From Reclinomonas americana ATCC 50394 (lineage: Eukaryota): DNA of 64,000 nucleotides. Position numbers and translations under genes: made by a program. Position 1 is the first letter of the stretch; each line of letters starts with the position of its first letter. Shown one piece after another: positions 33,616 to 43,296 of this stretch. Below the pieces are notes generated by a model. The model was not told where the DNA came from and ran no database searches. It was given only the letters and a program-made list of their open reading frames with translations. Location: contig PS015010.1 of assembly GCA_048213135.1 (NCBI GenBank), forward strand, positions 1,860,001 through 1,924,000, in the 5' to 3' direction.

Positions 33616-33996
33616 GATTAGGTTATATAACCTGGCTGATTACGTTATCCTACCTAAGCGGATACGTTACCTAACCTAAAGGATTACGTTCATCAACCTG
33701 AACGATTAGGTTATCCCACCTAATGAAATACGTTACCCAACCTAATGGTTTACGTCACCTAACCTAAAGGATTACGTTATGCTACCTAACCGGATACGTT
33801 ACCTAACCTAAAGGATTACGTTCATCAACCTGAACGATTAGGTTATCTCACTTAATGAAATACGTTACCCAACCTAATGGTTTACGTCACCTAACCTAAA
33901 GGATTACGTTATCTGACCTAACCGATCACGTTCCCCAACCTAACCGATTAGGTTACCCTACCTAACGGGACAGGTTACCTAACCTAATGGATTACC
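33616..33996. repeat. Tandem array of 17 degenerate 22-bp units (core TA[CG]GTT-N4-[AT]ACCTA)
   Basis: Exact 22-bp period from 33616; units 2-7 nearly duplicated as units 8-13 (132-bp higher-order repeat). Confidence 0.9.
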
Positions 33997-34296: not shown

Positions 34297-34664
34297 GATA
34301 GGTCCCTAACCTATCGGCGATACGTTACCCAACCTAACCCGGATAGGTCCCAAACCTATCGGCGATACGTTACCCAACCTAACGAGGATAGGTTCCTAAC
34401 CTATCGTGGATACGTCACCCCACCTAACCCGGATAGATCCCAAACCTATCAGGGATACGTTACCCTACCTAACCGGAATAGGTCCTCAACCTATCGGGGA
34501 TACGTTACCCTACCTAACCGGAATAGGTCCTCAACCTATCGGGGATACGTTACCCTACCTAACCCGGATAGGCCCCAAACCTATCGGGGATACGTTACCC
34601 TACCTAACCGGAATAGGTCCTCAACCTATCGGGGATACGTTACCCTACCTAACCCGGATAGGTT
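34297..34664. repeat. Tandem array of eight 45-bp units (22+23 bp): GATAGGT-N5-ACCTATC plus TACGTT-ACCC-[AT]ACCTA
   Basis: Units start at 34297, 34342, 34387, 34432, 34477, 34522, 34567 and 34612; partial ninth at 34657. Confidence 0.92.
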
Positions 34665-34802: not shown

Positions 34803-35213
34803 ATGACAGCCAGTAACAGAACCATACACCAGGGCCGCAACGTGAAACGATTTCGTGAAATGCTGGGCATAAAGCAGGACGCCCTTGCCGCCGACCTGGG
34901 CGATGACTGGAACCAGCAAAAGATATCTCTGCTGGAGCAGAAGGAAACCATCGACGACAGGCTGCTGCAACAACTATCCGCAGCACTGAAAATACCCGTG
35001 GAAGCGATTGAGAATTTTGATGAGGAGCAGGCGGTGAATGTGATTGCGAATACGTTTGGTGACTATGCTTTTAACTATGGGACAACAAATGTTCATCCCA
35101 TTGACAAACTCATGCAACTGCATGAAGATAAGATAGCACTGTATGAACGGATGCTGAAGGAGAAGGATGAGATGATGCAGGAACTGAAGCGACTTTTGGA
35201 GAGGGGCAAATAG
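34803..35213 (+). CDS. XRE-family helix-turn-helix transcriptional regulator
   Basis: HQGRNVKRFREMLGIKQDALA...QQKISLLEQKE; C-terminal LYERML..KDE; TACATTTG promoter at 34791-34798. Confidence 0.9.
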   Translation: MTASNRTIHQGRNVKRFREMLGIKQDALAADLGDDWNQQKISLLEQKETIDDRLLQQLSAALKIPVEAIENFDEEQAVNVIANTFGDYAFNYGTTNVHPIDKLMQLHEDKIALYERMLKEKDEMMQELKRLLERGK

Positions 35214-35233
35214 CCCTTTTCTTAAAATATTAT

Positions 35234-35267
35234 AAAAAAGCCGCATAAAATTGCGGCTTTTTGTTTT
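35234..35267 (+). terminator. Terminator after the XRE gene
   Basis: AAAAAAGCCGCA-TAAAAT-TGCGGCTTTTTGTTTT. Confidence 0.8.
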
Positions 35268-35382
35268 GAATTATTCTACATTTATAATGTTACCCTAAAT
35301 CTAATACCCCTGTCAAATCTCATAGAAAGAATATTTTCATAAAACAGCGCTGTTTTACATTTATATGAAGTGTATTGCACTA

Positions 35383-35479
35383 GCAACAATACGAAAAGCA
35401 TAGTGCTAACATATTGGCAACCAATATGTTTAATTTTTTGGAGCTTTTCGTAGTTGCGTATATCTATGAGTTAGCTGAT
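35383..35479 (+). mobile_element. Truncated attC-like site preceding cassette 1
   Basis: Stem GCAAC..TACGAAAAGC..AACATATTGG/CCAATATGTT..GCTTTTCGTA-GTTGC followed by GTTAGCTGAT at 35470. Confidence 0.55.
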
Positions 35480-35540
35480 ATTTTTAAGAGAACTCAATTT
35501 TCAACGAGCCCAAGACTATTAACAATAAATCAATTTTATT

Positions 35541-36359
35541 ATGACTTATGATGATGCGATAAGTACATTTCAAAAGCATTTGCAAAAACTTAATCAGTAC
35601 GGCACTGACTTTGAAGTGTGGTTATCAACTGCTATTGAACATGTTCATGACATTTTTAGCATTTTATCGCCTCAACATACAAGTATCACTCAAATTAAAA
35701 ATGACTACAATTTTGCAAGAATAAGAGATAAGTCGAACGACTTGCAAAAAACATACTCATATAAAGCTAAACAGCTTATTGAAAGTTTTATTGAACAGTT
35801 AGAAGATAAAAAGAGAATTGCAATAGCAGACGCAACTCAAAAAAGCAAAGCAGCAGCAAGTAAAGAAGTGAGCCTTCAACAGCAATTATCTTCGCTTACG
35901 ACTAAATACAATGCTCTATTTTCACAGAAGCAAAATTTTGAAGAGGAATTAAATCAAATAAAAAATCAGCCCAAACCAAAAAAATCTCTTTTTAAGGTAG
36001 CCAAGGGAGTTTATCAAATAAACACATCATTATTTTGGGGAGTAATTTTACCACTGCTTGGCGGATTTTTTGCTTTCGGGTTGTATGTTGGGACCACTAA
36101 ATTTGATAGAAACCTAATTGACTTGTCAGATAGTAATCGAGAACTTAAAAATGAGGTTGTTAATTTGAAAGACACAGTTAAGACTCGGGAAAACTCCGTT
36201 GAATATATGCGTCGAAATTCAGATTCAGCTTTAAATATATTAGGACACATGCCATATCAAGAGATGACTTTGGATACTTTGTCCTATAGAAAGGTTCAGA
36301 CAACAATCGAAAATGCTGGTGCTGCTTTGTACTTAAATATAAACTATCGGTATAAGTAA
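35541..36359 (+). CDS. Cassette 1: hypothetical coiled-coil membrane protein
   Basis: AT-rich ORF with one TM segment flanked by coiled coils. Confidence 0.75.
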   Translation: MTYDDAISTFQKHLQKLNQYGTDFEVWLSTAIEHVHDIFSILSPQHTSITQIKNDYNFARIRDKSNDLQKTYSYKAKQLIESFIEQLEDKKRIAIADATQKSKAAASKEVSLQQQLSSLTTKYNALFSQKQNFEEELNQIKNQPKPKKSLFKVAKGVYQINTSLFWGVILPLLGGFFAFGLYVGTTKFDRNLIDLSDSNRELKNEVVNLKDTVKTRENSVEYMRRNSDSALNILGHMPYQEMTLDTLSYRKVQTTIENAGAALYLNINYRYK

Positions 36360-36369
36360 AAGATAAAAC

Positions 36370-36571
36370 ATCAGCTAACATTGGTATTGCCAATAGTGGG
36401 GCTTGACGTTGGGACAATCAGCAATGGTAATTCTGCTGTGCTGTGGTTCGGGGCTGGACGAATAAAGCCCAGCTTTAATTCTTAGTATTTACCTTTATCA
36501 AAAAAACAGACAACAGTTCCGGGCGGACAGAATTCTAATTCCCCACCATCGGCAACACCTGCTCGTTGACT
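36370..36571 (+). mobile_element. Long attC-like recombination site 1
   Basis: ATCAGCTAAC at 36370; arms GGTATTGCCAATAGTGGGG and CCCCACCATCGGCAACACC; GTT at 36565. Confidence 0.72.
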
Positions 36572-36656
36572 GCAAGGCTACCGAAACCTCGTTCAATTTG
36601 AAGAGAGGTAAATAACTAACTTAAAAAATTATAATTCTGAATTTCAAGTATTTCAC

Positions 36657-37118
36657 ATGTCACTAAAAACTGATCTCGATTTTGAAGATAAAGAAACCAA
36701 AGAGTTACTTTCAAAGTTCGATTTTGAATATTTTCTAAAAGAAAATATTGAGGTAGAAAAATATTCCAAAGAGGACGTCGACCAAATTTATACTACATTT
36801 AAGAGCACGACAGTTGACCTTAAAAAAAGAGCAAAGAAAAACAAAAGACAATTCCTTCACTTTCTTGAAGGACAAATAAGAAAAGGATTTACAGGAGGCT
36901 TTTTACCTGCAATGTTTCATTTAGACAGAGGAAGGAGTCATCACTTTGTTGACTTTTCTGGAGTTGGTGAAAATTGGGCTTACTTCAAATTTTGGGCTGA
37001 CAATTATAAAAGAAAAGTAACTCTTAAAAAAGTTTGGGACATTATCGTTAAGGTCGGCAGTGTCTTAGCAATTATTTTATCAATAATTAAATTATGGGAA
37101 ACCTTTTCAAAAAAGTAA
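36657..37118 (+). CDS. Cassette 2, gene A: hypothetical protein with a C-terminal TM helix
   Basis: AT-rich ORF starting 92 nt after the GTT. Confidence 0.7.
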   Translation: MSLKTDLDFEDKETKELLSKFDFEYFLKENIEVEKYSKEDVDQIYTTFKSTTVDLKKRAKKNKRQFLHFLEGQIRKGFTGGFLPAMFHLDRGRSHHFVDFSGVGENWAYFKFWADNYKRKVTLKKVWDIIVKVGSVLAIILSIIKLWETFSKK

Positions 37119-37819
37119 GGAGTAAAATAAAAAAAGTTACACAATTATTTATCAGAAAAAGAGCTGAATTTACTCCTCTTGAAGAAGAAGATTATTTCCG
37201 CAGGTTTGGGATTGAAAAAAAAGACATCAAATACGAAGTAGTTAACAAAGAATTTTTAACTAAATCATTCGAGAAAGCCTGGGAAAATAGAAACTATGAA
37301 ATTGATAAGTTCTGGACAAGAGCCGCATATTTTTGGGGCTTTATTGTTTTAATTTTTGGTGGGTACATTTCATTATTGACAAGTGAGCATAATCAAAAAG
37401 CATTAGACATGCGTATTGACTTGTACTTAGTATTACTTGGTTTTTTATTCTCCTTGTCCTGGTGGTTGGTAATACTTGGAAGTAAATGCTGGCAGCAAAA
37501 CTGGGAAGCTCATATCGACAGGTTAGAAAATTATGTTTCTGGCCCTATTTATAAAACGATTTACTATTCGGGCGACAGATTTTACTCTGTTTCTAAGCTA
37601 AATGAAATCATGGCAATTGTTGTTTTCCTTGTCTGGTGTGGGCTGTTCGGACAATACACTTATAGTCATTTCAGATTTACTTTAAACTTCAATAAAATGG
37701 ACTTATTGGCAACATCTGCAATATTGGCGACATTATTATTTGCTTGTGCATTAAGATTTGGGTATTCGTTAGGAGAATACAAAAGTGATAAAAATAGTTT
37801 CATAGACCGTTGGGAGTAA
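37094..37819 (+). CDS. Cassette 2, gene B: multi-pass membrane protein resembling the RipA/Rip1 octameric membrane family
   Basis: R.YEIDKFWTRAAYFW, GSKCWQQNWEAHID.LE, GPIYK, YSVSKLN; four hydrophobic segments; family from recall. Confidence 0.6.
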   Translation: MGNLFKKVRSKIKKVTQLFIRKRAEFTPLEEEDYFRRFGIEKKDIKYEVVNKEFLTKSFEKAWENRNYEIDKFWTRAAYFWGFIVLIFGGYISLLTSEHNQKALDMRIDLYLVLLGFLFSLSWWLVILGSKCWQQNWEAHIDRLENYVSGPIYKTIYYSGDRFYSVSKLNEIMAIVVFLVWCGLFGQYTYSHFRFTLNFNKMDLLATSAILATLLFACALRFGYSLGEYKSDKNSFIDRWE

Positions 37820-37828
37820 AAGCCCAGA

Positions 37829-37991
37829 CAGCTAACAGAAGGTTTGCCGCAAGGCTAGCGGACGGAATAATAATCATCAGTTGTACTATTATCTACTAAT
37901 ATCGGGCTTGACCGAATACTATTCAGTTTTTGTTGTCTGGCTGAAACAACAATAATCCCAACACTGTGGCAAGCCTCGAACGTTAGCGGCA
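37829..37991 (+). mobile_element. Long attC-like recombination site 2
   Basis: CAGCTAAC at 37829; arms AGGTTTGCCGCA and TGTGGCAAGCCT; GTTAGCGGCA at 37982. Confidence 0.72.
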
Positions 37992-38023
37992 ATTCGTTGC
38001 AATTATTAAAAGAAAAGAAAATT

Positions 38024-38515
38024 ATGGCTCCTTACTTAAAAGAATATAGGCTTTCTGAAGTTATTGCTCTCATTGTGGCATTGTCAGTTACTGAGCATGT
38101 ATTTAGATCTAATGAGGGTTTAGAGAAATCATTTAGAGCAAATGCAAAATCAGCTAAAAACTGGATAGCTCTCGCAAAACAACATCCGGAGTTTTTTAGA
38201 CTGGGTGTTGATGAATTATCTGTTGCATTATTAATCAGATATTTTGATAACGCAGGTGCAGATGATAAAAAGCCTCGCTTAAGCATCGACCAAACCCAGA
38301 AATTAACAGATCAGGCGATAGAGTTACATGACAAACAATTAGGAAGATATCAACGTAATAGTTTTCGAATTCCGATTTTTACCACCGTGATCTCTGGTAT
38401 AATTGCGATTGTAATTGCAATTATCAGTTTGACAAATAACTCTCAAATAGAAAAGAAAATTGACGTTTTTACAAAAAAGCTAGACTCTATTCAAGTTGCG
38501 GTGCCGAAAAAATAA
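38024..38515 (+). CDS. Cassette 3: hypothetical protein with an HPEFFR motif and a C-terminal TM helix
   Basis: AT-rich ORF; ATG at 38024. Confidence 0.7.
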   Translation: MAPYLKEYRLSEVIALIVALSVTEHVFRSNEGLEKSFRANAKSAKNWIALAKQHPEFFRLGVDELSVALLIRYFDNAGADDKKPRLSIDQTQKLTDQAIELHDKQLGRYQRNSFRIPIFTTVISGIIAIVIAIISLTNNSQIEKKIDVFTKKLDSIQVAVPKK

Positions 38516-38525
38516 TGCATTATAC

Positions 38526-38670
38526 TGCCGCTAACAGTGCCTCGGCTATAGGCTCGACCTCTCAGTAGGAATATTCGTCTTTAAATAATAATTCGCATTT
38601 TATTTGTGCTTGGGTGGCCGGACAGACACAGCATCGAATACCAACGTCGCCAATGCCTGACCGTTGGCAG
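38526..38670 (+). mobile_element. attC-like site 3 with a degenerate left arm
   Basis: TGCCGCTAAC at 38526 (perfect complement of the cassette start); TCGCCAATGCCTGACC-GTTGGCAGC with GTT at 38663. Confidence 0.6.
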
Positions 38671-38917
38671 CAATTTCTTTCGGCCGCATAATTTTTCATA
38701 CCAATTAAAAACAATCTTATGCCGTGGTTGGCGTTTTCTTCAACCGCATCGCTTAAGGAGGAATAGACCCTCCCCTTCTAATGCTGCAGGTGATAATAAC
38801 AGCAACAACACCATCATACAGAAAAGGCGGTTTAAGTCAAATGGACTTATTTGTGTAATCCCCTCCTCAATCGCATCATCTATTTAGTATATATTAGCAA
38901 TACCCAAAACCCTGTCC

Positions 38918-40639
38918 ATGCATTCCGTACCAAACATTTCCAGCCGCAAAACCTCTTTGCTCGTCTTTTTAGCTTTCGCCGTGCTTTTCACATTCATTCA
39001 GCAATCATGCAGGAAAACCGATCTTAGTCAAACTTCTTTGGCGAAAGAGGAAGCGTTTTTCCGTACCTCGTCAAAAGACCCAAATGTATTACGCCTCATA
39101 AAGGCCCTGAAAGCTGAGAACAAACGCACTGGTTTTGTCAGCAAACTGCCGGAGAATAGTGGTACGCCCATTTGGGACAAATACGTGATGCGAAGCAGGA
39201 AACCCGACAAATCCATCTTTTGGCGGGGCTTGAACGGTGAGCCGGATTCCGTGGCCGTTATTCCTTTCACAAGCAATAATGAGAACCTGTCGGCAATCAT
39301 TGTTTATGACTCGTCAACGGTTTCGCCAGCGCTGGATTGTTATACGACCAATGGCAACCTTTACGCCATTTGCCACAATGCAAACGTCAATATTGACAAA
39401 GCCGAACAAATGCTCGCCCTGTTCCTGCAAATGGAAAATAGGGTATTCGGCAGCACGGTGTTTTATCATATCCCCGCGAAGATTTTCAAAAACCCCGCTT
39501 TGCCCGATACGGCAACGTCAGAAAAAATGCTGGTGATAGACACCGTAAGCGTACAGGGCTTTGCGGCGGACGATTGTTTCATTATCAAGTACTGCAATCC
39601 GGGCAATGTCTGCACGCCGCCGACGTATTGTGACAACTGCGCCGTTTGCCCATGGGTGTATTACTGCGATAGCCCTCCACCACCCACCGGTGGTGGAGGA
39701 GGTGATCCAACGCCCCCTCCTACCAATCCACCACCCACTGGAGGCGGAGGTGGAGGAAACTGCAGCAACTGCCCGCCACCGCCACCTGAACCCTGTCCGT
39801 TTGGAGGAGCATGGTATAATTTAGTACCGACTTACGAACCCTGCGGGCCGACCAACCCGCCGACAGAGCCGCAAATACCGTACAACCCTAATATTGCTGC
39901 AAGTATTACCATTGATACTTCAATTTCGAATAATTACCCATGTTTAACACAATTACTCACAGAAATGCCCAATTGCAATGCGGAAACTCAAAAAATATTG
40001 TATAATGTGTTTGGTAGAAAGACCGCAATAAACTTACATTTTGAGATGGATAATAATTTAGTGGTAGATACCCTTACAGATGCATATGCAACAGATGGAA
40101 GTGGACATTTAGTGACTGTTCCCGGTGACACAGCTTACCATTACTCCGATACTATCAAAATAAATCCATTTATTCTTCAAAGAGCATCTAAAGAGTATCT
40201 TGTGGGCGTATTATATCACGAATCTTTTCATGCCTTCTTGAACTGGGAACTTTATCGAATGCTTAATGGAGAAACGGATTCAAATTACCTAAAGCATTAT
40301 TATCCCATTTTTTGGGCATCTTTATTCACAAATACTTATGAGTCATTTCATGAACAAATGGCAAGTAACTATACGACCTCAATGGCTAATCTAATAAAAT
40401 TGTACTATAACCCATCGGCCCCGGACAGCATTAAAAACCGTGTCTCAAATAGCATTGCGTGGGGAGGACTGGAGGGAACAACAGCTTGGCGACAACCTAT
40501 CAGAGATACATGCCGCATTAATTCCGATAATAAAGCCGCAAGAAATTATTCATCGCCACAAACATATTCAACGACAGGTTGCGGTTCAATTACAAAATCC
40601 GCTACCACTGACCTAAAACTTACATCACAATGTCATTAA
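38918..40639 (+). CDS. Lipoprotein with a Cys/Pro/Gly-rich linker and a C-terminal HEXXH zincin-like domain
   Basis: Lipobox QSC; PPPTGGGGG twice; HESFH followed by HEQM. Confidence 0.75.
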   Translation: MHSVPNISSRKTSLLVFLAFAVLFTFIQQSCRKTDLSQTSLAKEEAFFRTSSKDPNVLRLIKALKAENKRTGFVSKLPENSGTPIWDKYVMRSRKPDKSIFWRGLNGEPDSVAVIPFTSNNENLSAIIVYDSSTVSPALDCYTTNGNLYAICHNANVNIDKAEQMLALFLQMENRVFGSTVFYHIPAKIFKNPALPDTATSEKMLVIDTVSVQGFAADDCFIIKYCNPGNVCTPPTYCDNCAVCPWVYYCDSPPPPTGGGGGDPTPPPTNPPPTGGGGGGNCSNCPPPPPEPCPFGGAWYNLVPTYEPCGPTNPPTEPQIPYNPNIAASITIDTSISNNYPCLTQLLTEMPNCNAETQKILYNVFGRKTAINLHFEMDNNLVVDTLTDAYATDGSGHLVTVPGDTAYHYSDTIKINPFILQRASKEYLVGVLYHESFHAFLNWELYRMLNGETDSNYLKHYYPIFWASLFTNTYESFHEQMASNYTTSMANLIKLYYNPSAPDSIKNRVSNSIAWGGLEGTTAWRQPIRDTCRINSDNKAARNYSSPQTYSTTGCGSITKSATTDLKLTSQCH

Positions 40640-41145
40640 GAGGAAACAAGACAAGTCTAATTTTAATCATTACTTTATTTGCAAATATTGCAAATGCTCA
40701 AAATGATGCTGTTGTAAACAAAGAAATAAACGAATATTCAACACAAGTGAGCAAAAATTTTTGGCCGCCACAAGAAGAACTAGAGAAAATTAGAAGTGAA
40801 ATGTATTTTGTATTGTTCCAAGTACGAGATTCTGTTGTAAGAATAATCGAGGTCTATGCGTCGAAAGACACTGTACTCAAAAAACACCTGGTGAGCTACC
40901 TTTCAAGCCAGATTGGGGTAAAAAAGTTCAAGTCTGTCAAAAATCATGATTATGTTTTGCCTATCGTAATAAAAAACGTAGCAATAAGGCCAGGCCTCCC
41001 TATTTATAATTCAGACTATGATTATTTACTGTGGAAGAATGGGAAGCCGAAGAAGTTTAACAGATTAGATAATATTACAACCTTGCCAATTTTTATTATT
41101 AGGAACAGTAAACCATTTTCTAGAAAAGAAAGCTTGGCGCCATAA
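40630..41145 (+). CDS. Hypothetical secreted protein
   Basis: Signal peptide; overlaps the upstream stop codon. Confidence 0.65.
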   Translation: MSLRGNKTSLILIITLFANIANAQNDAVVNKEINEYSTQVSKNFWPPQEELEKIRSEMYFVLFQVRDSVVRIIEVYASKDTVLKKHLVSYLSSQIGVKKFKSVKNHDYVLPIVIKNVAIRPGLPIYNSDYDYLLWKNGKPKKFNRLDNITTLPIFIIRNSKPFSRKESLAP

Positions 41146-41166
41146 ACGAAAAAAAAGCCTATAACT

Positions 41167-41628
41167 ATGAAACGTCTTTTTGCTCTGATTTGTTGTTTGA
41201 TACCGTTCATTCTGAGTGCGCAAGGCGGAAAATATTCCACAGCGATCGCTGAGCTAAAAAGAACAGTAGAAAGAAAAATAGATGCTCCTGAAGACCTGCT
41301 GTCCAAGCGTCAAAGTGCCGTTGTACTGGTCTCAATTTCGTTATCCAAGTCCGGTATTTTTAAGTCTGCAGCAGTGGGTTATAACGAACAATCCGACACG
41401 TATAGAATTATGGACAAGGCGATTAAGTCCGTAAGAGCTGCAACATGGAAAAAATTCAAAGGGGTTGAAAATATCCTCATCCCGGTTTTTCTGGCATTTG
41501 ATGACGAAACCAATTTTTGCTTTGACTGGAATCAATTTAATCCTCAAAAGATGGATCAAAGTTATTTCCAGGGCTTGTATTTAAAACCGTTAGTAATTCT
41601 TATTGGTAATCCTAGAAAAGTGCAATAA
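41167..41628 (+). CDS. Hypothetical secreted protein, weakly TonB-C-like
   Basis: Signal peptide; V.VSISLSKSG...W......IPV pattern. Confidence 0.6.
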   Translation: MKRLFALICCLIPFILSAQGGKYSTAIAELKRTVERKIDAPEDLLSKRQSAVVLVSISLSKSGIFKSAAVGYNEQSDTYRIMDKAIKSVRAATWKKFKGVENILIPVFLAFDDETNFCFDWNQFNPQKMDQSYFQGLYLKPLVILIGNPRKVQ

Positions 41629-41724: not shown

Positions 41725-42736
41725 ATGCAAGAAAAGAGTTTTCAGAAATTAGTTTCAATTGCACTGATTGTTGTAACTCTTTTTTCCTGCAATGACAAAA
41801 AGCCAACAATCGCACCAGAGCAGAAAATTGTTCACAAGCCCTGGAAAGAACAAAAGCAGGAATACATCTGGACAACATCTACCCCCGATTCTGAATTGAT
41901 AAAAGGAACGGAATCATATAAAGATGGAATGGTTTTTAATGTATCGAAGCCAACTATTACCATTTACCAACCAGCAAAAAACAATACAGGCGCTGCCATA
42001 CTTGTATTCCCAGGTGGCGGTTATAATAAAGTTGCCATTGAATTGGAAGGCTCTGAAATTTGCGAATGGTTAGCAGCAAATGGCATTACAGGAATCCTGC
42101 TTAAATACCGCGTGCCCGGGTCGGGACACCATTATGACGCAGCTTGTCATTGTGGTAAAGACCCCATAAAACCATTGGCATTGCAGGATGCCCAAAGAAC
42201 AATGAGCCTGGTTCGCTTCAACGCAAAGCAATGGAACATAGACCCCGGCAAAATTGGTGTTATGGGATTTTCCGCGGGCGGACACCTGGTTGCGGATGTA
42301 AGCACCAACTACAGAACAAAAGCGTATCAGCTAACTGATGATATAGATACAATAAGCAGTAAGCCCAACTTTGGGATTGTGTTTTTTCCCGGGCATATGC
42401 TGGTGCATACAAACGGACCATATAGCCTTAACAGAAACTTACCGGTAGACAGCAGCACACCCCCTACATTTATCCTGCAGGCAGGTAATGACCCAATTGA
42501 TACCATCCAGAATTCGCTGGTATATTATATAGCACTGAAAAAAAAATCATGTACATGCTGAGTATCACATTTACGCAGAAGGTGGGCATGCATATGGTTT
42601 AGACAGAACAGCGCTCAACAACCCAAACTGGAACAAACTGCCTATTGCAGATTGGGAAGCTTTGGTCTTACGATGGTTACAGACAATTGGAATAATTCCG
42701 GGAAAAGATGAAAAACCAAAACAAACCAGCCACTGA
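41725..42736 (+). pseudogene. Alpha/beta-hydrolase esterase lipoprotein frameshifted in an A9 run
   Basis: PGGGY, GFSAGGHL and the catalytic Asp lie in 41725-42561; the His segment (HIYAEGGHAYG...RWL) continues in another frame after A9 at 42538-42546, ending at TGA 42736. Confidence 0.8.
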
Positions 42737-42858: not shown

Positions 42859-43296
42859 ATGGCACTCATCAACCCGCACATTAACTTCAACGGCAATGCC
42901 GAAGAAGCATTCACATTTTACAAATCCGTATTTGGTGGAGAGTTTGCAAGAATTGTACGACTCAAAGACATGGCAAACGCTGAATTCCCGGTATCTAAAG
43001 AGGATGAAGACAAGATCATGCATATTGCATTGCCTATCGGTGGTAATGTGCTGATGGGAAATGACGTTCCTTCATTTATGGGAACAGTAAATGAGAAAGA
43101 AAACAGGAGCAAAATCTCCATAAGCGCTGCCAGCAAAGAAGAAGCGGATCATCTGTTTAATGGTCTTTCTGCCGGCGGAGAAATAGAATACCCTATTTCC
43201 GACAGCCCCTGGGGTTCCTACTTCGGTATGTTCCGGGATAAATATGGTATTGAATGGATGGTTGACTTTGACGCGAGATATAACGGGAAAGTATAG
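42859..43296 (+). CDS. VOC/PhnB-like protein
   Basis: FNGNAEEAFTFYKSVFGG, IMHIAL, WGSYFGMFRDKYGIEWM. Confidence 0.9.
   Translation: MALINPHINFNGNAEEAFTFYKSVFGGEFARIVRLKDMANAEFPVSKEDEDKIMHIALPIGGNVLMGNDVPSFMGTVNEKENRSKISISAASKEEADHLFNGLSAGGEIEYPISDSPWGSYFGMFRDKYGIEWMVDFDARYNGKV

Follow-up and report, generated by a model that had tools for sequence, protein, structure and literature searches.

Three ageing gene cassettes on a probable orphaned platform of an integron-like system in Chitinophagaceae

The window, i.e., the whole 64-kb stretch of DNA analysed here, is confirmed to contain a genuine, ageing array: three swappable cassettes follow a docking site, and no enzyme gene lies near them. 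Judged from sequence comparison with relatives, this array is very probably an orphaned platform, now ageing, that belongs to a widespread integron-like system of Bacteroidota by which Chitinophagaceae capture genes. The same comparisons show that the mobile unit of this putative system consists of a gene and its downstream hairpin body, cut at G/TT, that arrays begin at an attI-like motif, that the predicted recombinase of the relatives lacks the I2 insertion and carries an extra N-terminal domain, and that the predicted hairpin has 19-bp covarying, bulge-free arms with one fixed A-C mismatch. The window holds a small, decaying example, whose main value is the clean orthologue pair formed by cassette 1 and its counterpart in G119.

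Layout of the array and its genes

The array is made up of the following features (coordinates of the window):

35370..35472, + strand: attI-like docking module, a ~80-nt spacer and a core motif (35451-35472), with no recombinase gene or gene tail 5' of the module
35471..36565, + strand: cassette 1, by its position the youngest; one gene between start and end box, then hairpin site 1, own ends pairing at 14/15
35541..36359, + strand: gene for the 272-aa protein of cassette 1, with a coiled-coil-like middle and a hydrophobic segment as judged from sequence
36370..36574, + strand: hairpin site 1, from end box to AAC, with a 185-nt body (36380-36564) and 19-bp arms, then GTT; nearly intact
36566..37982, + strand: unit 2, with two overlapping genes; ends pairing at 8/15
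36657..37118, + strand: gene for a 153-aa protein of unit 2, no family above cut-off (Pfam, NCBIfam, PADLOC)
37094..37819, + strand: gene for a 241-aa membrane protein of unit 2, Pfam 8xMP (PF24838), E 1e-30
37827..37991, + strand: hairpin site 2, with a 145-nt body (37837-37981)
37983..38663, + strand: cassette 3, by its position the oldest; one gene between start and end box, then decayed site 3, ends pairing at 10/10, then 11/15
38024..38515, + strand: gene for the 163-aa protein of cassette 3; the open frame reaches a TTG at 37997
38526..38672, + strand: hairpin site 3, decayed, with a 127-nt body (38536-38662) and a damaged left arm; the last GTT box is the array end

The boxes are GTTAGCTGAT (35470) and ATCAGCTAAC (36370) in unit 1, GTTGACTG (36565) and CAGCTAAC (37829) in unit 2, and GTTAGCGGCA (37982) and TGCCGCTAAC (38526) in unit 3, with GTTGGCAGCA at 38663 as the final box of the array. 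Over the 15 nt compared, the start of each unit pairs with its own end at 14 positions in unit 1, 11 in unit 3 and 8 in unit 2. One of the box 10-mers recurs inside a gene at 42326, and no complementary end box was found beyond the final GTT, downstream as far as 47000. The AAC-to-GTT distances are 185, 145 and 127 nt in sites 1, 2 and 3, respectively, and the RYYYAAC box is absent from 35200-38800, so the classical attC consensus is not found in the region. The first-pass annotation, which had described three AT-rich, co-oriented units with self-complementary ends and long, atypical sites, is borne out in these respects: all its box coordinates were recovered on re-check, the units lie on the + strand with a G+C content of 33-35% (about 47-50% for most of the window), the complementarity of start and end is as claimed, being poor in unit 2, and its ~140-200 bp sites agree with the ~199, 159 and 141 nt obtained once the 7-nt boxes are counted.

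The protein encoded by cassette 1 matches no Pfam, NCBIfam or PADLOC family above cut-off and is 78% identical to a protein of G119, where homology begins at an identical 16-nt start box, ends at an identical end box and is flanked by different neighbours (an IS110 gene and a toxin-antitoxin-like pair); no relatives of cassette 1 were found in viral contigs. The protein of cassette 3 has five homologues, every one unnamed or hypothetical, and as a query it gave no match in 251 family genomes; no orthologue of cassette 3 with genomic context was found. No credible defence match emerged from PADLOC among the cassette genes. Unit 2 does not fit the simple cassette model, given its poorly paired ends and the presence of a nearby (truncated) site at only 1 of 11 related metagenome loci carrying the 8xMP gene, and probably arose by the fusion of two cassettes or as a hybrid. 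Homology of its second gene with L049, which has a different upstream gene, starts 20 nt 5' of the start codon. A literature search on 8xMP returned unrelated papers only.

We infer that the head module acts as an attI site, where strands would be exchanged between G35470 and T35471. The segment 35370-35497 is matched by a profile made from 33 recombinase-to-array spacers (E 3.8e-11), the profile positions over the gene's end being unmatched. The core motif is one base off the motif adjoining the L146 and L148 recombinases, and in relatives a motif ending in GTT is conserved beside recombinases of either orientation, at ~50-230 bp from them. The core pattern has 40 matches in the genome contigs collection, 29 of which bear Bacteroidota titles, and 8 in viral contigs. 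Such modules are present in several copies per genome and are commonly orphaned, no recombinase lying within 400 nt of 29 of the 61 profile matches, or of 27 of the 30 outside the training loci. Because the array begins with such a head, it would represent an orphaned platform and not merely a cluster of attC-like sites. The first-pass view of a CALIN-like array holds for the hairpin sites in a row with no integrase nearby, and has to be amended for the head at 35370-35472.

Other candidates in this region were set aside. The segment 35383-35470 was considered as a short attC, but it is matched by the attI-spacer profile and by neither of the two site profiles. An upstream HTH gene was rejected as a component of the system, an attI-like module or site lying behind the gene in 1 of 30 homologous loci. 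A role for the upstream tandem repeats is not supported either (long tandem repeats at 3 of the 30 homologous HTH-gene loci). A terminator-like hairpin is located at 35408-35430. As to a cassette promoter Pc, no exact match to the Bacteroidota -7 motif occurs in 35214-35545, and the sigma-70 promoter scan is ill-suited to Bacteroidota.

Hairpin sites and recombinases in relatives

Profiles made without the window (nhmmer) recover all three sites, with E-values of 8e-49, 6e-15 and 8e-7, the next match in the window being at E 0.1. Site 1 (E 7.8e-49) retains 16 of 19 Watson-Crick arm pairs and is 90% identical to a G045 site. Alignment to the closest site in G236/G045 presents site 2 (covariance model 78 bits; E 6e-15; arms 13/19) as the 183-nt type minus 38 nt internally, with several arm changes, and site 3 keeps 7/19 arm pairs (covariance model 22.7 bits, E 3.6e-5; nhmmer E 7.6e-7 for its 3' half). 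As far as these alignments indicate, sites 2 and 3 are deleted, decayed derivatives of the ~183-bp type. The hairpin scan recovered 48 sites in 40 related loci and none in the same loci shuffled. At the hairpin sites the Rfam search gave no match; the plasmid collection yielded one weak match, inside a gene, and the phage collection none. Synteny with the three nearest flank matches (G368, G291 and G196) is lost after dapA or earlier.

Bodies measure 179-187 nt in 182 of 224 sites, in a sample biased by the 60 of 120 loci obtained by resemblance to site 1 or 2. In the 19-bp arms, 14 of the 19 pairs change on both sides, with a covariation of 0.50 versus 0.16 in shuffled alignments (0/500) and at most 0.11 in slid controls. 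Across 65 aligned sites no bulge interrupts the register of the arm pairs, except for a single-base insertion in one sequence, and all 65 share a mismatch at one pair (fixed A-C, or G-T on the bottom strand). Consensus folding gave no structure in the hairpin loop, and folding energies do not separate the strands, the bottom one being more stable in 21 of 40. The two ends of a cassette pair over ~15 bp, position 11 being almost always mismatched, and carry a circle footprint: of 109 cassettes lying between two sites, 84 agree with their own end in 6-7 of the 7 positions past GTT, and 7 with the start of the next cassette. Two same-locus duplicate cassettes have gene and downstream body in common (identity 1.0), and the upstream bodies differ (0.61) in the one duplicate that is readable.

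Arrays in relatives adjoin a tyrosine recombinase without the I2 insertion, which is present in 129 of 301 family genomes (E<=1e-40). At least one hairpin site lies in the sampled DNA at 26 of 42 recombinase loci; the remaining 16, several of them near contig ends, have none. The enzyme of one relative (P0001) aligns to VchIntIA (2a3v) in two pieces, with residues 261-283 facing 182-247, a deficit of about 43 residues; for TIGR02249 it reaches 191 bits, the cut-off being 265. The first catalytic Arg is 89-93 residues from the HxLRH motif in the 37 enzymes, out of 39, that could be parsed. The best whole-length profile is archaeal XerA (201.7 bits, cut-off 220), and the best solved match of the C-terminal part is VchIntIA. 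The N-terminal domain is a weak candidate for a HARP-like domain: DUF5710 matches 20 of 39 members and Pfam HARP 1 of 39 at E 0.084; the profile search returned SMARCAL1 HARP at rank 3 as a weak match (E 0.53), the predicted model (pLDDT 83) resembles UvsW with Z 4.3 (54 residues aligned at rmsd 2.4), a score that unrelated entries share, and the Atlas yielded unnamed Bacteroidota clusters only.

Several proposals of the first-pass annotation gain from these comparisons. Mobile cassettes with a G/TT crossover are supported by the G119 orthologue and the own-end footprint, and a Bacteroidota system, of Chitinophagaceae type, by the commonness of the sites in relatives, where a covariance-model scan matched 77 of 101 family genomes. 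The outcome it had regarded as fatal, no further copies and orthologues not bounded at the G/TT positions, did not occur, site copies being common in relatives and the cassette 1 orthologue being bounded exactly at its boxes. The window is free of tyrosine recombinases as it had stated (no tblastn match with a relative's enzyme; best E 3.1 with a 39-sequence profile in six frames), and a recombinase encoded elsewhere accords with the arrays of relatives, supply in trans being assumed here. The search it had suggested, for an IntI-like or other tyrosine recombinase near other copies, leads to a tyrosine recombinase that is not a canonical IntI.

Proposed mechanism and alternative readings

In the mechanism we favour, a recombinase supplied in trans would act on a circular cassette whose site has folded as a single strand, and join that site to the double-stranded attI-like one. 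New cassettes would hence enter at the head, and older ones would be pushed outward and decay, with site 1 better preserved than site 2 and site 2 than site 3. Classical integrons lose attC x attC excision when both sites are stripped of their extrahelical bases, according to an excerpt of PMC2727003, so the sites here would need a different recognition mode; the two mismatch-marked stems may act as two inverted binding sites, replacing the extrahelical bases.

Hairpin bodies appear to be exchanged between cassettes independently of genes, as suggested by one close and three distant pairs. The bodies of cassette 1 and its G119 orthologue are 57% alike, the median to all long bodies being 62%, and 22 bodies that are 84-90% like site 1 follow genes that show no detected similarity among themselves or with cassette 1 (ORF testable for 21 of 22). 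Among nine non-identical homologous pairs, drawn from ~120 large loci and smaller ones, four share 12-15 of their 15 end-box bases, as 148 of 3000 random pairs do, with bodies only 49-64% alike, and five do not keep their end boxes. The hairpin body would occasionally be replaced while the gene retains both end boxes. In the route we prefer, two sites of the same array would cross over at the AAC box, deleting a body and the next gene and leaving the first gene with the next body. For this exchange step alone, there is a serious contender, a little short of even: cassettes may have formed de novo again and again, or gene conversion may have copied a few template sites. Of 203 long bodies, 133 have a partner of at least 80% identity behind an unrelated gene, as if few templates had been copied, and PMC8352920, in the portion available, regards cassette genesis as a likely influence on how homogeneous attC sites are within taxa. 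However, independent origin would not be expected to produce identical 5' and 3' ends in orthologues, nor the paired change of start and end box in the L240/L220 pair, and body types ~60% alike would offer little homology for gene conversion.

As for the system as a whole, it is improbable that the window holds a plain CALIN of a canonical integron, with ordinary long attC sites and a classical IntI elsewhere in the genome. The G/TT crossover, the own-end complementarity, the co-oriented short AT-rich genes and the C-terminal resemblance to VchIntIA all fit such an origin, and the I2 insertion is described as "not fully conserved" in an integron-like subgroup in a section of Smyshlyaev et al. 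(PMC8138268); yet the array-head enzyme is I2-less and well under the TIGR02249 cut-off, the arms have no bulged bases, RYYYAAC is missing from the region, and bodies of mostly 179-187 nt exceed the 57-141 bp quoted for attC in an extract of PMC5371416. Non-autonomous MITE- or REP-like hairpins inserting in an AT-rich island of immobile genes would account for bodies spread over unrelated genes and genomes, some flanking genes whose window homologues are without sites. Solo insertion, however, does not account for the own-end pairing (84 versus 7 of 109), for duplicates that carry gene and body together, or for the conserved motif, next to a recombinase, from which arrays begin, and this reading is more improbable still. 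Chance matches in AT-rich DNA, which the recurrent box 10-mer at 42326 and the poorly paired site 3 might recall, deserve next to no credence, since independent profiles match only these three places, shuffled loci yield no sites, an orthologue has identical ends, and most family genomes searched have a covariance match.

Starting from the orphaned platform, a stronger reading can be put forward speculatively, at rather less than even confidence. It holds that a second integron class exists in most Chitinophagaceae genomes searched, in which single-stranded hairpins would be recombined without I2 or extrahelical bases, two mismatch-marked stems would be read instead, the N-terminal domain would bind 19-nt phased loop motifs, the enzyme would cut both site ends, and bodies would form a second mobile layer, shuffled while genes keep their end boxes. 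No paper describing this cassette system was found in the literature search. If the enzyme works as inferred, hairpin recombination would be possible without I2, a large mobile gene pool would so far have been missed, and the origin of integron integrases from double-strand recombinases, treated in an excerpt of PMC7790495, would be directly concerned. The uncoupling of body and gene would offer a handle on how cassettes gain and renew sites, and a caution against tracing cassette source by site alone.

Comparison with known systems

On sequence criteria, the system would work like an integron, yet it lacks two defining traits, the I2 insertion and the extrahelical bases. Each cassette closes with an imperfect hairpin in which AAC/GTT is invariant, and its start is complementary to its own end; in relatives a putative attI site with G/TT crossover adjoins the recombinase gene, the window's copy having no gene beside it. 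A tyrosine recombinase with the I2 insertion (intI_Cterm) is found neither in the window nor in the relative's enzyme, extrahelical bases in the L stem are absent from the 65 aligned sites, and the sites depart from attC of 57-141 bp with RYYYAAC/GTTRRRY boxes.

As in sedentary chromosomal integrons (the VCR array of V. cholerae, VchIntIA 2a3v), a head site lies beside a tyrosine recombinase, followed by co-oriented units of gene and hairpin with a G/TT crossover, only AAC/GTT invariant at the crossover, own-end complementarity, and a covarying stem with a large loop. Unlike them, the relatives' recombinase is without I2, has an extra N-terminal domain and is co-oriented or divergent; the arms are 19 bp long with fixed mismatches and no extrahelical bases; the spacer is 3-4 nt here versus 5-6 nt; and most bodies measure 179-187 nt, their loop being phased and conserved, with many body types per array. 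The array resembles CALINs (2016, PMC4889954; Neron et al. 2022, PMC9024848) in having at least two hairpin sites in a row, with no integrase gene or pseudogene nearby within the 64-kb window, and in being small and degraded; in contrast to them, it keeps an attI-like head, of which there are several per genome, and its sites are known as attC-like by sequence, not as IntI substrates. Finally, the recombinase shares with Xer-like simple tyrosine recombinases (XerA 4a8e, XerC/D) a catalytic domain without I2, XerA being its best whole-length profile, but differs from them in its location at cassette arrays, in scoring under every Xer cut-off, in its IntI-like C-terminal tail and in an N-terminal domain that matches DUF5710 in about half of the members.

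A small array of integron-like cassettes

The window holds a genuine array, small and decaying, that belongs to an integron-like system. Its DNA looks to be of Chitinophagaceae type: three genomes in the family of G002 (a genome titled Chitinophagaceae) have a ClpC 91-92% identical to the one encoded here. The AT-rich cassette region, with four co-oriented genes, lies between an HTH gene and the gene of a 573-aa protein:

34803-35213, HTH_3 gene, one of a family present in multiple copies in Chitinophagaceae (relatives in 35 of 251 genomes)
35471-36565, cassette 1, ending in hairpin site 1 (185 nt from AAC to GTT)
36566-37982, unit 2, including an 8xMP gene and ending in site 2 (145 nt)
37983-38663, cassette 3, ending in site 3 (127 nt)
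38918-41628, secreted-looking 573-aa protein whose middle is rich in Pro, Gly and Cys (SprT-like match, weak at E 0.004), then two short AT-rich genes

The box positions named in the first-pass annotation proved exact on re-reading of the sequence, and its statement that the window lacks a tyrosine recombinase was borne out, neither the gene nor a remnant being found within the 64 kb. Profiles of sites from other genomes (157 long and 13 short) match the window at E < 0.05 at the three sites only, and a covariance model gives 158 bits to site 1 (itself in the training set), 78 to site 2 and 23 to site 3.

Lengths of the hairpin body between AAC and GTT (n = 224) fall mainly at 179-187 nt (182 bodies), with 19 at 115-123 and 4 at 145-149; site 2 is of the 183-nt type with 38 nt, i.e., two 19-nt steps, missing. 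In the 65 long sites aligned, out of 103 collected at that stage, the 19-bp arms form 88.8% standard pairs, a rate partly selected, as sites were initially chosen by arm pairing. Not products of that selection are the changes on both sides at 14 of the 19 pairs and one position mispaired in all 65 sites (A opposite C in the alignment, which on the bottom strand would be G-T); two T-A pairs are invariant, and no bulged bases were found in these arms. Consensus folding of the loop gave no common structure; the loop is conserved in sequence, with strongly conserved C residues spaced by 20, 18, 12, 19, 19, 19, 13 and 18 nt; autocorrelation of its trimers peaks at 19, 38, 51 and 69. In its arms, site 1 departs from its site type by a single change and site 2 by several, and the left arm of site 3 is broken; decay thus rises with distance from the head, as would be expected if new cassettes enter there and older ones decay farther away.

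Unit 2 and cassette 3 fit less well. The two genes of unit 2 overlap and its ends are poorly matched; among 11 loci with the 8xMP gene, only L049 has a site behind it, truncated, and the gene upstream differs from that in unit 2. For cassette 3, no relative was found in the 251 genomes searched.

The head module and the recombinase of relatives

An attI-spacer profile made from 33 stretches behind co-oriented recombinases matches 35370-35497 (E 3.8e-11) except for its part covering the gene's end, and the array therefore begins at an attI-like module without an enzyme gene. Such modules are common: the profile finds 61 matches over 120 loci, 31 beside a long recombinase match (29 of them from training loci), 1 next to a fragment, and 29 with no recombinase match beside them. 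The pattern of the 22 bases up to the first GTT has 40 exact matches in 185,579 species genomes (29 with Bacteroidota titles), most of them continuing into bases characteristic of cassette starts, and five genomes checked hold 2-7 copies each, against 0 for the reversed control. The motif adjoins recombinases in both orientations, co-oriented and divergent, one copy lying 200 bp from the divergent tyrosine recombinase P0001 (locus L097).

Relatives of P0001 at E <= 1e-40 occur in 129 of 301 family genomes. The first-pass annotation had proposed looking for further site copies and for a recombinase near them; both turned up in relatives, the covariance model detecting hairpin sites in 77 of 101 family genomes, and sites being seen at 26 of 42 recombinase loci, nearly all pointing away from the attI-like motif. 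P0001 aligns with VchIntIA, the Vibrio cholerae integron integrase, in two pieces, with ~43 residues missing where I2 lies, and its profile scores below the IntI and Xer cut-offs. An N-terminal domain of ~70 residues is present in 38 of 39 enzymes from these loci, and 20 of the 39 aligned domains match DUF5710; a HARP-like fold is suggested, not established.

The attI-like module contains, at 35408-35430 and 40 bases ahead of the crossover, a perfect 10-bp hairpin followed by a T run, which could act as a terminator silencing the array. G002 (L088, C2:852700-859900) has a series of five attI-like motifs with one or two genes behind each, and the three whose flanks were compared share ~130 bp upstream, as if the docking module itself had been copied.

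Cassette movement and proposed exchange of hairpin bodies

When 18 kb of the window was compared with 401 family genomes, the best match was a G119 orthologue of cassette 1, in an array behind a damaged recombinase of the P0001 family. The genes are 78% identical, 16 bases from GTT and 20 around AAC are identical, and the similarity stops at these end boxes. In 109 cassettes with a site on both sides, scored at 7 variable positions, the start fits the cassette's own end at 6-7 positions in 84, against 7 for the start of the next cassette (mean fit to own end 5.8/7; random pairs 3.4/7). Pairing falls to 4% at position 11 and returns to 66-81% at positions 12-15; cassette 1 has this full pattern, including the renewed pairing, and cassette 3 its ten-base match and position-11 mismatch. 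These patterns indicate that cassettes move as units, and the crossover is placed, on sequence grounds, at G/TT, because both same-locus duplicates keep gene and downstream body unchanged, and because of the attI-first order.

The G119 orthologue is preceded, directly before its GTT, by an IS110-family transposase gene (L101:385-1430), with a gene resembling group II intron reverse transcriptases just upstream, and followed by a toxin-antitoxin-like pair. The IS110 element apparently lies inside the preceding hairpin site; IS1111-type elements likewise insert in attC. In G195, two arrays (L152 and L169) carry a 289-aa gene, 97% identical between them, behind a G/TT junction with differing upstream bodies; its product has an integrase-like N-terminus, and the gene is possibly an element targeting these sites.

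Bodies appear to have a history of their own. That of the G119 orthologue is well paired (17/19 arm pairs) and 57% identical to that of site 1, under the 62% median of site 1 against all long bodies, and bodies 84-90% identical to site 1 stand behind 22 other genes, for which no similarity to cassette 1 or among themselves was found. The widest comparison (260 sites) yielded a small number of homologous gene pairs, 11: two are identical duplicates with identical bodies, four conserve their end boxes (12-15/15) with bodies just 49-64% alike, and five do not conserve their ends. In three of the four conserved-end pairs, one body or both have a close twin (86-95%) that stands behind an unrelated gene, and a body of this kind is therefore younger than the split of the cassettes. 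One pair with 27% protein identity shows a matching change at one position of start and end box. Such swaps would arise in one step if two sites crossed over at the AAC box, and classical sites are described as partly depolarised when extrahelical bases are removed (PMC2727003). The main rival is that bodies were copied from template sites.

Flanking genes and relation to known systems

Upstream of the HTH gene, tandem arrays at 33638-33995 (period 22/66/132) and 34297-34663 (period 45, 8.2 copies) lie on either side of a short non-coding segment; small hairpins occur in their units, as do GTT and AAC triplets, and no connection of either with the cassette system was found. Behind a homologue of the HTH_3 gene in G212 (L225) come a recombinase tail, then an attI-like site and a cassette of site-1 type, a context seen at 1 of 30 loci. 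Downstream lie an alpha/beta hydrolase gene (41725-42730), apparently split by a frameshift in a run of A near 42540, and a glyoxalase-like gene (42859-43296). Their 65-76% identical homologues in G245, G338 and G221 have hairpin sites on their flanks; the window genes have none, and may once have been cassettes or be genes from which cassettes arose.

A search by title and abstract opening, with most subscription papers outside it, found no published description of this system. A tree of 21 attC-adjacent recombinases without intI_Cterm in Cury et al. (PMC4889954), and the appendix of Smyshlyaev et al. (PMC8138268) about an integron-like subgroup, for which they describe the insertion as 'not fully conserved', may bear on its novelty; a review counts Bacteroidota among the phyla with integrons (PMC8618304). 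In contrast with the classical integron, the relatives' enzyme lacks I2 and the hairpin arms lack extrahelical bases. The system seems to act like an integron, yet falls outside integrons by these two criteria.
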